Below, one piece after another: positions 125 through 6,100 of a DNA stretch of 64,000 nucleotides. Under the pieces are notes generated by a model. It made no database searches, was not told where the DNA came from, and saw only the letters and a program-made list of their open reading frames with translations. Within the stretch, counting starts at the first letter, position 1, and each line of letters opens with the position of its first letter. The position numbers were made by a program, and so were the translations under genes. This DNA comes from Chrysomallon squamiferum (taxonomy: Eukaryota; Animalia; Mollusca): assembly GCA_012295275.1 (NCBI GenBank), contig CM022665.1, forward strand, positions 44,268,001 to 44,332,000, read 5' to 3'.

Positions 125-3100
125 GTAATGAATAACTTGGTTTTATTTTATATTTTTATTTATATATATATGTATATAGGTCTTTAACCTTTTTGAGATA
201 ACTTGTTCCTAAGAAGTCCATTTTACAATATCATTATCTAAATTGAAAAGAGAAGGGAAAAATATTTGTTCCAAACAAATAGCTTTTGAAAATGTATAAA
301 TAAAATAAATATAATTATCTTTATCTTTAATTATAATTATCTATAAAATGTTGAGATTACTGGTTCCTTTGAAATCTATTTTATTATCTCATTCATTAAA
401 CTGAAAACAAACGGAAAAACATATCTTCTAAGTAAATTAATTTCTGATGAATTATCTAAAAATAAAATAAATATTATAATTAAAATGAATATATATATAT
501 TTACTGGAAGAAACCATTTAATAAAATAATAAAAGAGTAATTAGTTTGTAAAGTTAAAATAAACTGGTTTATGACATGCTAATAAAATCATTTATGAAGT
601 AGAAATGAAATAGCCAGTTTATAAGACAACAATAACTATTAATTATTTTGCCTGAAGGGGGGGATCAGATGTTGTACAGATAACAATGAAATTATTAGAC
701 TTGGCCTTAGGGCATTCTTTATCAAGATTATTAAATTTACTGGCATGCCAACCACATCAAGTGTGTGTTGAGCTTGTGGAAAGTTTTCTTATTATATTGT
801 ATGATAACGTACATTGAATCTTATTTCAGACCTGACTGGATTATCCAAAGATAATTTTATTACTATTATTTATTTTTTTATTTTTTTATTTACTTATTTT
901 ATTATTATTATTATTATTATTATTATTATTATATAATTGATTAGTTTTCATTTCTTAAAATTATTTTATTGTACTTTTTAAAAATATTTTTTTATTTATT
1001 TATTATTTATGTTTGTTTTATTTTTATTTAATCTTTTTTATTTATTTATTTAGTTGATTTTTTTTTTCTTTATCAATGTGTGTGTGTGTGTGTGTGTGTG
1101 TGTGTGTGTGTGTATATATATATTTTTTTTTTTTTTTTTTTTAAATTATGGTACACAGTAAATATTATTTTTAAGAAAATTAATTATAAAAACAATCTAA
1201 AAGGTCAAATGAAAATATTTTCATTAAATAATAATATTAAAATGATCAAACTTATTGCATGATTAAAAAAAAAAAATGAAATTAATTTTGTAATCATAAT
1301 AATAAATGAAAAGAAAATAAAGTTAATACATTATTTTCAAAATAAAAACAATAAATGTCAAAGACATTTTTGAAAAAAAACAATAAAAAGAATGTAATTA
1401 ATGAAAAAAAAAATTAAACCTTTATATAATAAAATAATAAAAATAAATAAATAAATTATATATAAAGAAGTTAAGAAAAAAAAAAAAAATGATTAAACCT
1501 TTATATAAAAAAATAACGATAATAGCAATAAAAATAAATAAAAATAAATAAATAAATAATAATAATAAAATTTTAAAATATTTAAAAAAAAATTATTTTT
1601 TAAATATTAAAAATATATATATATATAAGAAAGTGAAGAAAGAAACAAAAACAAATAAAATAAAATAATGAAAAGTGTGAGATATCTGGGACCAGTGTTG
1701 TGTAATATAAATATAATAAACGCTCAGTGTGTTAATAATTGTTCTTGCTGCCGATGTTTGCCAACAGGTAGAACAGTACTACCAGCGAGCTCTAGAAATC
1801 TATGAAAGTAAACTTGGCCCCGACGATCCTAACGTAGCTAAGACTAAAAACAATTTGGTAAGATCGGTGGTCGTGTTCAATATACGCTGGGGTCAACGGT
1901 GACTGTCGCACATCCAGAATCAGAAATTCCATCGTAGAGAGCTTGTCTGTGTTTGTCCGTGTCCGTGTCCGTGTTGTAGCAGCTTTTGTCGTTTAAATCC
2001 TGGTTTTATTATATTTGTGTTAAAAAAATCTCTTTTGTATATTAACTTGTTTATTTCTGATGATTGAAATGCTTGGTTACCTTTGTGTGATTTCCGTGAA
2101 AAAACAAATTGAAATCAAAATTTTGTCTGTAAATGGTTTTATGATTACAAAAATTGATTTTTTTTCTTCTCATTTGTTAAGTTAGTTTATCTGTTATAAG
2201 AGCTGAACAAAAAGTTTTTAAAAATTGAATAAATTAAAAAATATTAAAAAAATAATTCATTTTCATTATCTCGGACACAAATTAATTTAACAGTGTTTTT
2301 GTAACACTAAGAATATATATATCCACTCCAAATTTTAAAACAGCAAGTGGAGATATTATTTATCCTTCCAGTAATATAAAATAATTATATTTTAACACTC
2401 TTATGATAGAATCAGGATGCTGGTATATTCTTTATTGTTAAGTTTTAAACTGAAACAGGTAAATTGTTTTATCTGTGCTTTACGTGTTAATACTAGGTCA
2501 GTCAGAGGCTTGTGGGGTGTAAGTTATTTTGTAAGACGTCAACATGGTGTCTTTTTTCTTATTGCTTTGGTATCATTTTTAACGATGGAATCTTCTGATG
2601 TCATCAGTTCTTTTTTAGACTAAATTAGCTTCAAAGAAAATTTGAAATTCTTTAGTAACAGAATTGCATTAGTCTCCTAATAAGTTTTGATGGATCCATA
2701 TAATGGGCTTGAACATTATATTTTGAAATGTAAAAACAAAATGCATACCGAAAAATTTGATACAAAATGTTTTTTGTTAAGATATGCTTGTATTTAAAGG
2801 AGAATGAATTTTGATTTTAAATTAAAAAAACAATAAACAACAACAACAACAAAAATTTAATTAATTAAATAAATAAATAAATAAAATTAAAAAACAGTAA
2901 GATAAACATGTATCATATAATGTCCAATCAGTGGAAAGTTTATGTAAATGATCTCTCCGTAAAAATTCATAAGGGGAATACAGCCACTGAAGAAATAAAA
3001 ACATTTATCCTTTTTGAAACATAAGAAAATCAATATTACATTATATATTTAAAACAATATTTTGAGATGTCATTCATCAAAACTTCAGTCAGCTAATGGA

Positions 3101-6100
3101 ATTCTGTTACTTAAAGAATTTTTATTTAAAAAAAAAAAAAAAAAAATTCCTTTTACTTACATCAATATTTTTGGAATTTCTTTTTGTCACATTCAAATTT
3201 AAAAAAAAAAAAAAAAAAAAAGAAAGGTAAAATAAAATTTTGGAAATAAAATATTTTTTCCAAACACAAACTGGATGTGCAGCAAGTTGGCCCCACTACC
3301 TGTGAAGGTACAGCATGCACCTTGCACTTTTTTAAAACTTATCTCTTGCAGGTAGAGAAGTATTATGTGAGAGCTTTAGAAATATACAAGAAAAAATTGG
3401 GAACTGATGACCCAAATGTGATAAAAACCCAAAACAATCTGGTAAGGCTGGTGGTAAACAAATTAACACTGCTCGGAGAGAAAAAAAAAAAAATATATAT
3501 ATAATCCTGTTTTACGCTTTCTGATCTAACAACAACTGGACATGCAGCCATTTTGTACTCAAATAAATACTAATGCTGTTGGCTTTTTTCTCTAATTCCT
3601 TTTTTTTTTTAATTTTCAGTATGTGGATGTCTGTTTGAAATGTTATAGAAAAGTTTTAAAAATGTTTTTTTTTTTTTTTGTCTGTTTGATATAAGAAATG
3701 TTAAAGAAAAGGTAAAAAAAAAAAAAATTTTTTTTTTTTGTATATAGATGTATGTGTGTGTTTATTTTAAAAATTTTAAGTGATAACTTGTTACCAAAAT
3801 TTTTTTTTTTTATATATATATGCATACAAAATTTATTACAAAAAATTATAAATGTTTTAAACGTGTGTATGTGCGAGTGTGTGTATAAAGTGAAAAACAA
3901 TTTTTTTTTTTGCTTATTACAGATTTTGAAAATTATTCACAAGATGTTTCACATACTGAATTTACCACTGATTTTTTTTTTCTTGTAGTCTTTCTAATCC
4001 TCTTTAAAAACAATCAGCTAGTGTTTGATTCAGATTTGACTGAATTGTTGCAGTTAATATGTTTAACTTTATAAATAAAATTAAAAAGTCTGATTGCAGT
4101 TTTTTTTAGTTAAAATCTTAATTCATATATATTTATGCTAACTCTCCATATTACATTTCTCTGCATGTATTATCCATGTATTCTTCAAATTCTTGCACAT
4201 AATGATGTATACAGGCTTATATGCATGCTTACATACATGCATACACATTTAAACACACAAACAGAAATGTACAAAACACAAGAACATATGGATTTATTCA
4301 GACAATTAATTGGTTAGTGCACCAGTATTAATTACTGTAATTTTATGTTGTCTGACATTAAACTGTAATGTTAAAAAAATTGTTTTAAAAACCATTTGTT
4401 TGTGCATGATAGAAGATCAAAACAGTTGAGTGTTATTAACTGTTTTTATTATTACCTTAGAATTGTTTATTTAAAAAAAAAAATGCATGTGGCAGTAGAT
4501 AAGTTATGAGTTTGAAAAATAATGATTAAAATATTTTTACTGAAACTACACACACACACACACACACACACTAATCTTTGTATTTGTTGGAATGTATTAT
4601 GCACAATTTGTAATTTTTAAAATGCACAAAATAAATATTAAAATACATTAGATGATCTGTTTATAAAAAACTGAATTTTGAGCACACAAGTAAATTGATT
4701 TTATTGTTGTGTATATGTGAATAGAATTGATACAAAAAGATCTGTTCTGAAACTCAAAATAACTCATCATATCACTATTATTAATCATTGATATCCTATC
4801 ATTCGTGAAGAAAATTAATTATTCCTTATTTTTTCATTTTTTCATTTAATTTTTTTTTCTTAATTTTAAATCTGTATTCACATAATGAACAGTTTAATAT
4901 ATATATATATTTTTTAATATATATGTTTCATATTACAACCAGTTTAAATAAAATAGATTTTACGTGTGTTTTTCTTATTCGTGATGTGAAACATAATGGG
5001 TTTCTGTTTGTGTTCAGGCTTCAGCCTACTTGAAACAAGGGAAGTACAAACAAGCTGAAGTCTTATATAAAGAAGTCTTAACAAGAGCACATGAAAAGGA
5101 ATTCGGAAAAGTAGAAGGTAGGTTTTTTTTGTCTTGAATATTTATTATTGTTATTATTTTTTTATAAATTTTTTTGTGTCAAAAAAAAAATCAGAAAAGC
5201 TGAATAGAAGGTTAATATTTTGTCTTAAATATTTAATTTCTTTGTTTCTTCTTCTTTTTTTTTTTTGGAATGTTTTGTGTAAAAAAATTAATATTAAATT
5301 TTTTAAAAAAGGTAAGGTTTTAAGATTCATAATTTGTCTTACATATTTAATTTCTTATTGTTTTTGTTTTTTAAATGTTTTGCATAAATAATTTTTTGTT
5401 TTAGATTAGATCCCAAATTGATTTTATTTTATTTCTGTTGTTCAAAGAGAGAATGAATAACAAAAAAGTATATAATTTATAAAAAATTATATATTTCTTA
5501 TTCCTGGTTTAATTTTTAAACTTTGAATTTCAGGCGAGAACAAACCTATATGGATGAGGGCAGAAGAAAGAGAAGAAAATAAGGTACCTCAGAATTTTTG
5601 TATTTATTTATTTATTTATTATGACAAATAAGCAATAGAAATACATCATAACAAATACATAAATATATAACTGTTCAATTAGATTAAATGAAAAACTGGT
5701 ATTTATATTTGTTCCATTAGTGAAGTATATTGTTATACGGTCTGTATTAAACAGTGTTAAATAACTCTTGATAATTTTTGTTATTTGGTTGTGTATTTAA
5801 CTTGATGTTTGTGGTGTCATAAAATACTTCAGATGATAAGTAGCAGTTTATTTGATTGTTATTTTATTTATTTCATGGAATTGATGCAGAAATTAAGTTA
5901 CTAATTTTACTGATGTATTAAATTAAAAAAATTTCCATCATGGACGAAGACCACATTTTCTCAGAGATTTTACTCTAAAAGTAATAACGTATAAGACTTG
6001 ACTTGTTATTGTCAAGGATGTCATATATATTTGTCCTCTTTTGTACCAATGTTGTATCTAACGAGAGAGAGAGAGAGATATATCATTTATTTATTTATTT

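Follow-up and report, generated by a model that had tools for sequence, protein, structure and literature searches.

A tandem exon pair in the TPR domain of the Chrysomallon squamiferum kinesin light chain gene, and a predicted intron helix that may keep its copies apart

Homologous tandem exons of the same length and phase, of which each transcript carries one, are a well-known kind of splicing. The human catalogues of tandem duplicated and mutually exclusive exons (PMC8373072, PMC5740500) describe such pairs as old and as replacing part of a domain. In the exon 17 pair of Drosophila Dscam1, a cluster of two exons, a long-range RNA structure (15 bp over a spread of ~1000 nt; PMC6027157, table 1) is combined with a steric argument, while in OGDH 4a/4b, alpha-tropomyosin and alpha-actinin exclusivity comes from a donor lying less than ~50 nt from the branch point (PMC7969005). 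Kinesin light chains (KLCs) obtain several TPR surfaces or tails per gene family through the vertebrate paralogues KLC1-4 and through C-terminal splice variants (PMC6214655, PMC8318374). Here we describe a tandem exon pair, A and B, in a KLC gene on the plus strand of a 64,000-nt stretch of the Chrysomallon squamiferum genome (assembly GCA_012295275.1, contig CM022665.1, positions 44,268,001 to 44,332,000), hereafter the window.

The pair shares length, phase, homology and partial domain replacement with the human examples, but no KLC gene appears in the two catalogue supplements, in agreement with the first-pass annotation of this DNA, which had given vertebrate KLC genes a single such exon. 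It also differs from the human examples in altering the cargo-adaptor domain of a motor and in being accompanied in relatives by a second pair. Compared with Dscam1, the helix in the intron is predicted only and is found in some of the two-copy loci; unlike OGDH and its companions, where the branch point is close in linear sequence, the 1494-nt intron would have to be shortened by folding. Published KLC splicing concerns the C-terminal domain, and the residues of paralogue selectivity, N343 and N469, are untouched by the A/B pair. Automatic annotation already lists both products, A and B, as RefSeq isoforms of Gigantopelta aegis, Biomphalaria glabrata and other molluscs. The literature on KLC with exclusive or duplicated exons, molluscs, squid or Aplysia yielded no paper describing the pair, its range or the intron helix, in a search whose scope left out most subscription papers; a 1993 squid KLC paper reportedly deals with N- and C-terminal variants. 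The pair is thus present in databases as isoforms without having been found described, and the predicted RNA clamp of molluscs is new. We consider it probable that A and B are an old tandem exon pair, with B alone spliced in the RNA of this species and A or B alone in the models of a close relative, and that a predicted helix likely blocks the joining of A to B.

Both exons are 90 nt long and in phase 0-0, with a CAG acceptor and a GTAAG donor. They agree at 23/30 amino acids and 59/90 nucleotides; six codons are identical, 17 differ synonymously and seven non-synonymously, and the net charge of the exon peptide is -1 in A and +2 in B. Direct comparison of the sequences therefore bears out the first-pass description of two intact exons with these properties and many synonymous differences. 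The reading frame from exon 41-124 via 5018-5117 on to 9808 is intact with A alone or with B alone, and the joined A+B form is also in frame. No third copy was detected in the window, the next tblastn match being the upstream TPR exon. The first 14 intron bases after the two donors (1858-1871 and 3442-3455) share 11 positions, GTAAGnnnGGTGGT, and past them the downstream flanks have no similarity; the earlier statement that the flanking introns are unrelated holds beyond these bases and fails within them. The shared continuation is either a leftover of the duplication or a common regulatory motif. The exons in question are as follows.

41..124, plus strand: flanking upstream KLC exon; TPR4 helix A, carrying the K340/N343/N344 equivalents; in runs X1, X3 and X4 its final bases form the loose contig end attached to exon B.
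1768..1857, plus strand: exon A, the ancestral-type copy, KLC1 358-387; same peptide in Gigantopelta aegis, Patella, Mytilus and Mya models; unspliced only in RNA contigs.
3352..3441, plus strand: exon B, the derived basic copy; joint 3441>5018 in 4/4 RNA runs, upstream exon joined in 3/4.
5018..5117, plus strand: flanking downstream KLC exon, the rest of TPR5; RNA contig joint and reading frame.

The gene starts before the window and ends at 18551. Its exons are 80-100% identical to mollusc KLC, and its 42-residue TPR repeats are of KLC type and match solved KLC1 and KLC2 structures (one site), so that the KLC identity proposed earlier stands. Against the models of G. aegis the exons are 84-100% identical, with the differences in the tail, and by this comparison the window sequence is a close relative of that of G. 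aegis and a different sequence. The N-terminal heptad region, which binds the heavy chain, is present in relatives, and its place is upstream of the window. A protein search with the whole region returned, among the best 120 of 7075 matches, multi-repeat TPR proteins, none of them named KLC, and a repeat finder gave only low-complexity A/T runs among the pairs listed.

The stretch was found in five sequencing runs, four of them by record RNA from one study and the fifth, X5, from a second study, and junctions were judged from the assembled contigs of the first four. The joint 3441>5018 is present in all four (contig depth 121, 8, 38 and 37), the end of exon 41-124 is joined to B in three, and one X2 contig retains the intron upstream of B and is spliced downstream of it. 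Since B is the spliced form in the RNA contigs, it is no pseudo-exon. Exon A is covered in three of the four runs, solely within unspliced contigs at a depth of 4-7, and no joint 1857>3352, which would place A and B in one transcript, was seen in the contigs of the four runs. These junctions, and the presence of both copies in relatives given below, were the checks that the first-pass annotation had proposed. Exon A has no listed variant between individuals in three runs and keeps its splice sites, and this species would very probably use it in other tissues or at other stages.

In relatives the two copies appear as alternative products. A search with exon B returned 11 candidates in total, ten of them gastropod KLCs and one a fragment. 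The G. aegis models XP_041353783/784 (X1, X2; both 659 aa) differ at exactly the seven positions of the window and carry its A and B peptides, and the B. glabrata models XP_055879057/058 (X1, X2) differ in this exon only (in both cases among the cluster members listed). The RefSeq models fetched comprise 54 with A and 13 with B in gastropods (n=67), eight and two in chiton (n=10), and 18 and two in mussels and clams (n=20), with both copies in 0/97; this sample is biased, one source search (best 120 of 2113) favouring A and two-copy models. Lingula models carry A in 12/12 cases, and echinoderm and hemichordate models are of one type per species in 92/92. In Mytilus californianus the A models (the P0246, P0368, P0371-P0373 set) differ from the B models at 10 or more further sites, many of them downstream, and 5/18 mussel and clam A models therefore probably come from a duplicated gene segment; the pattern in this species suggests such a segment or a haplotig. 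Metagenome loci were taken as the best 80 of 103, of which 33 were examined by tblastn. Five of these have two copies (L004, L021, L028, L049 and L055) and 11 cover the exons on either side with a single copy between them, which means that the second copy can be absent. Taken together, the exon pair is found in gastropods, bivalves, chiton and an annelid.

Models that chain A and then B occur in Elysia, Biomphalaria, Bulinus, Bradybaena, Patella, Nucella, Mytilus, Pinctada, Magallana, Mya, Lamellibrachia (an annelid) and two amphioxus species. Most of these would be the work of a predictor that chained neighbouring exons, and many GenBank models chain the two copies in this way, a recurrent annotation pattern that is thereby exposed. 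Both-copy oyster models include P0292, P0298 and P0167, for instance, and loss of the intron helix is a possible cause. Four single-copy loci with mollusc- or annelid-like TPR exons (L029, L057, L063 and L073) have I or G at 381 and V at 375, residues that otherwise change in B. The high-scoring Polyodon and Acipenser sequences are not this pair, having a single copy at the site and a two-exon repeat.

The duplication is old, judged by the divergence of its copies. Between A and B of the window pS is 1.09 and pN 0.15, and the dN/dS ratio that had been proposed as a check is not estimable because synonymous sites are saturated. Over the six two-copy loci (the window and the five above; 15 pairs) pS ranges from 0.44 to 1.11, with pN of 0-0.09 among A copies and 0.03-0.26 among B copies, and AG/GTAAG is kept on both copies in 6/6. 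Mean identity is 28.5/30 for A (n=17) and 24.6/30 for B (n=19), that is, A is near-frozen and B drifts more. The charge shift is nevertheless kept, from -2 to 0 in the 17 A peptides and from +1 to +3 in the 19 B peptides. Both copies are under purifying selection, in keeping with the earlier suggestion of an old duplication kept under selection.

Molluscs and annelids parted more than 500 million years ago. In a tree of 50 rows of 30 residues (few columns, two rows omitted) a single clade for all 19 mollusc and annelid B copies was not rejected (p-AU 0.90), nor was it demonstrated. The two amphioxus copies (Branchiostoma P0165 and P0169) group together (93/89, unstarred) and have T370 and M384 in common, and adding amphioxus B to the B clade was not rejected (p-AU 0.36). 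The amphioxus copies probably go back to a duplication of their own; 30 residues are too few for a tree to prove this, or to prove that the remaining B copies arose once.

Exclusivity cannot be put down to a premature stop, since A+B remains in frame, or to the intron being short, since it measures 1494 nt. An outer helix is predicted in this intron, pairing 1888-1897 with 3286-3295 and 1908-1917 with 3271-3280. Its duplex has -37.4 kcal/mol, compared with a shuffle mean of -21.1 (sd 3.0; reached in 0/60 shuffles) and with -14 to -22.5 kcal/mol in six other introns of the gene. When the duplex test was applied unchanged to 30 introns, the window (z -6.0), L021 (-4.7) and L028 (-5.7) stood out, all three being A-B introns, and the other 27 gave -2.4 or higher; an end-to-end helix is thus found in 3/6 A-B introns, all mollusc-like, and in 0/24 others. 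The peptides of L021 and L028 resemble those of heterodont clams. In whole-intron folds that include both exons the helix persists in all three loci, with mean pair probabilities of 0.74-0.98. The paired region opens 31, 35 and 31 nt downstream of the A donor and closes 56, 68 and 73 nt upstream of the B acceptor (window, L021 and L028, respectively), the helix sequences being unrelated and long inner stems coming next. The predicted elements in the window are these.

1888..1917 (1888-1897, 1908-1917), plus strand: outer helix 5' arm (predicted), starting 31 nt past the A donor.
1919..2039, plus strand: inner stems 5' arm (predicted), pairing with 2375-2599; 17-bp helices 1919-1935/2582-2599 and 1997-2013/2402-2418; variants 1933, 1958, 2008 and 2037 preserve pairing.
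2646..3120, plus strand: second inner stem (predicted), 27 bp 2646-2673/3092-3120 and 14 bp 2682-2695/3072-3085; variants 2650 and 3072 preserve pairing.
3271..3295 (3271-3280, 3286-3295), plus strand: outer helix 3' arm (predicted), ending 56 nt ahead of the B acceptor.

Variants between individuals kept pairing in 6/6 cases at confident long-range pairs and in 4/11 elsewhere, and none is listed in 1858-1932 (three runs) compared with 12 in 1933-2046, a boundary chosen after the fact. We lean towards a model in which the helix would loop out ~1.4 kb, with 30 nt unpaired on the side of the A donor and 56 nt on that of the B acceptor, and would bring the donor and the branch point under a limit of ~50 nt, such that A could not splice to B. 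The effective distance from donor to branch point permitted by the helix geometry would be 33-65 nt, which would fit a block on A>B splicing given the steric limits of ~50 nt (PMC7969005) or 60 nt (PMC13762713).

Other structures were sought in the same introns. No flanking-intron duplex of the docking/selector type of Dscam1 exon 6 exceeded the shuffle range (-21.4 to -25.1 kcal/mol), an all-against-all scan of 22-nt duplexes gave a best value of -24.0 kcal/mol, again within the shuffle range, and Rfam had 0 matches in 1-20000. Because the best 22-nt duplex falls within the shuffle range, we set aside single short stems, among them an 8-bp match of the A acceptor region with the helix 3' arm and a 10-bp match of exon A with the flank of the B donor. 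A hairpin in L004 was strong with 146-nt ends (0/40 shuffles) and gone with 120-nt ends, and was not counted.

The exon segment corresponds to KLC1 V358-L387 (chain 9pmb 338-367, offset +20), an offset that agrees with K340, N343, N344, L347, L348 and N351 in PMC6214655. In the fold of G. aegis X2, the B isoform, it forms helix 367-384, a loop and helix 390-406 and so runs from TPR4 helix B into TPR5 helix A, as had been proposed. Helix 4B carries four of the seven A/B changes, the turn one and helix 5A two, and the charge change stems mostly from the outer helix end. The main peptide contacts of KLC1 are made by the first helices of the repeats, with secondary contacts from helix 8, and N386 is the only exon residue named in the text as a peptide contact (PMC6214655). 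None of the 17 A and 19 B peptides departs from N386 or from K382, N385 and Y369, which correspond one repeat on to K340, N343 and R327; N385 is changed in the B copy of L055, a locus outside this set of 36. Residues A381 and K384, which we take to be TPR positions 1 and 4 and hence packing positions, are invariant in 12 single-type orthologues and changed in 15 and 10 of the 19 B peptides, respectively.

In the inhibited motor, one TPR domain contacts the coiled coils through the turns between its helices, and helices of repeats 2-5 in the other hold a motor (PMC13371920), while another study places the docking site at TPR1 (PMC13078783). It is quite possible, though short of what we would expect outright, that B keeps the peptide-contact positions while altering TPR4 on its outer helix, the turn, and TPR5 at two helix-packing positions, thereby tuning outer TPR contacts and rim charge; the candidate outer contacts would be heavy-chain docking in the folded inhibited motor or a partner on the outer face.

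The relatives provide a second pair of this kind. RefSeq models of gastropods, bivalves, chiton and Lingula contain two alternative versions of TPR2 helix B, and these are present as tandem exons with splice sites, the derived copy first, in L001 (4702-5238), L004 (3947-4559) and L049 (2730-3993); the position of this pair is upstream of the window. All four TPR2 x TPR4/5 combinations occur among gastropod RefSeq models, so that one gene could give four TPR domains, and both exon pairs lie where the TPR domains dock the heavy chain according to PMC13371920 (turns, repeats 2-5). A wider reading, which we regard as doubtful, is that two either-or pairs in outer helices existed before the mollusc-annelid split and gave four TPR domains that set the motor lock, with an RNA clamp in molluscs whose loss in oysters led to both-exon transcripts.

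Several observations weigh against the preferred reading of an exclusive pair held apart by a helix. Spliced exon A was seen in 0/4 RNA runs, and no joint from A is listed, in contigs of a single study; contigs lose rare forms, and the missing spliced A in them shows no absence of A use. The A-B introns of L004, L049 and L055 lack the end-to-end helix, as do three TPR2-pair introns, and it cannot therefore be the general mechanism. The duplex test was designed after the window helix had been seen, which leaves L021 and L028 as the only independent cases, and the whole-intron count of long-range pairs does not discriminate (133 in the A-B intron compared with 111 and 81). There is no YTNAY motif just after the helix in the window. 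Intron helices can also promote splicing by bridging (PMC7404189). On the protein side, faces were assigned from helix position and TPR consensus positions, and the segment takes part in 4/115 heavy-light chain cross-links, none below 35 A (table of PMC13371920; offset +22 inferred). Finally, the oyster RefSeq models fetched (n=39) comprise 18 with A, three with B and 18 with both, the latter in 4/5 oyster species, and this set may reflect real A>B reads.

The absence of the helix from half of the A-B introns and all three TPR2-pair introns, together with the bridging effect, speaks for an either-or choice made by splicing factors or weak splice sites, in which the helix just shortens the intron or favours B. 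We think this somewhat unlikely, given that the 31-35 nt from the A donor are near-constant in three loci of unrelated sequence, a geometry expected of a steric block. A duplex that is not sequence-specific is reported to regulate the FGFR2 exon pair, which counts in favour of this alternative. The oyster models bear rather on the idea that A and B are two cassette exons that can be included jointly, the form longer by 30 aa being a real third product at least in oysters. Such a product would be in frame, so that decay by premature stop would not remove it, and AlphaFold predicts for the oyster A+B form one fused helix of 25 residues (pLDDT ~85-91) with no confidence drop and no collapse. The insertion is a single helix and not a two-helix repeat, and the earlier claim that co-inclusion breaks the 42-residue register holds for the helix count and is not borne out for the fold. 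The 0/97 both-copy models outside oysters and the missing 1857>3352 joint count against joint inclusion, and 18/39 overstates the oyster share because the source search was built to rank two-copy models at the top. We regard cassette exons as very unlikely; the mutually exclusive use proposed at first agrees with B alone in 4/4 runs and with A or B alone in relatives' models, and less well with A alone in 0/4 runs and with the oyster models.

It is hardly credible any longer, and largely refuted already, that one copy is a decaying pseudo-exon, be it B or, in this species, A. Such decay could account for A not being seen spliced here and for the 11/33 loci with one copy, but B is the spliced form, the A peptide is the same in four named molluscs and free of listed variants in three runs with its splice sites kept, and pN is far below pS for both copies. 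As to what the choice does, the first-pass annotation had foreseen two cargo-binding surfaces, and a rival to the outer-contact reading would be two cargo-binding grooves with different adaptor preference, brought about by rim charge and repacking of TPR5 helix A. The charge shift of ~+3 is kept in all lineages and T371/K372 lie 11-13 A (C-alpha; numbering offset inferred) from K340, the residue that holds the terminal carboxylate of JIP1 (PMC6214655), so the charge of the rim at the end of helix 4B could matter; the invariance of A381/K384 in single-type orthologues, the secondary contacts of helix 8 and the change of N385 in L055 point the same way. This idea is weak, however, because no named groove position differs between the copies and the outer helix or turn takes five of the seven changes; moreover, KLC1/KLC2 selectivity is fully explained by N343 and N469, which suffice for KLC1 selectivity and lie outside the exon, and the W-acidic site is between TPR2 and TPR3 (PMC6214655). 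We consider two grooves unlikely.

The rest of the gene, as matched to mollusc KLC, is as follows.

5534-5583, 6250-6317, 7084-7192, 9647-9808/9841, 14212-14330, 17585-17645 and 18471-18551, plus strand: remaining KLC exons.

Two GT donors, at 9808 and 9841, are 33 nt apart, and the G. aegis models use either (X1 and X5, respectively). Exon 17585-17645 has two reading frames, one giving SMKRASS... after the membrane-helix exon 14212-14330 and the other a 19-residue alternative after 7192. The short form that joins 7192 to exon 17585 is matched by the models G. aegis X8 and Haliotis asinina X19, and KLC forms without the amphipathic helix thus exist in snail models; splicing that yields such forms has been dated to the agnathan stem (PMC8318374).

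Two further genes are visible in the window. On the minus strand at ~24690-30680 there are exons resembling enolase-phosphatase E1, a likeness that we presume from a DIEGT motif; Pfam gave no match for two single exons of this gene. On the plus strand at ~35670-61000 lies a gene with an N-terminal hydrophobic stretch, a lysine-rich region and long coiled coils, for which Pfam gave no significant match and which we take to resemble ribosome-binding protein 1 or kinectin. If that identity is correct, a kinesin-related membrane protein would lie two genes from KLC.

Published KLC diversity consists of paralogues and C-terminal tails, and the A/B pair adds variation within the TPR domain that molluscs and an annelid have kept and that amphioxus has apparently evolved anew. 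The pair singles out an outer patch of TPR4/5 as functionally important, which the groove-centred structures do not explain, and its natural A and B variants can be tested against the new inhibited-motor structures. Constant in position and not in sequence, the intron helix offers a compact and testable example, from outside insects and vertebrates, of steric exclusion by RNA folding. Molluscan neurons are classic models of axonal transport, and it therefore matters which isoform they use. If the reading with four TPR domains is true, it would mean tissue-specific thresholds of kinesin-1 activation, with mixed dimers suited to two unequal TPR sites, and a sequence-free, position-fixed clamp that would enforce the TPR4/5 choice in molluscs.

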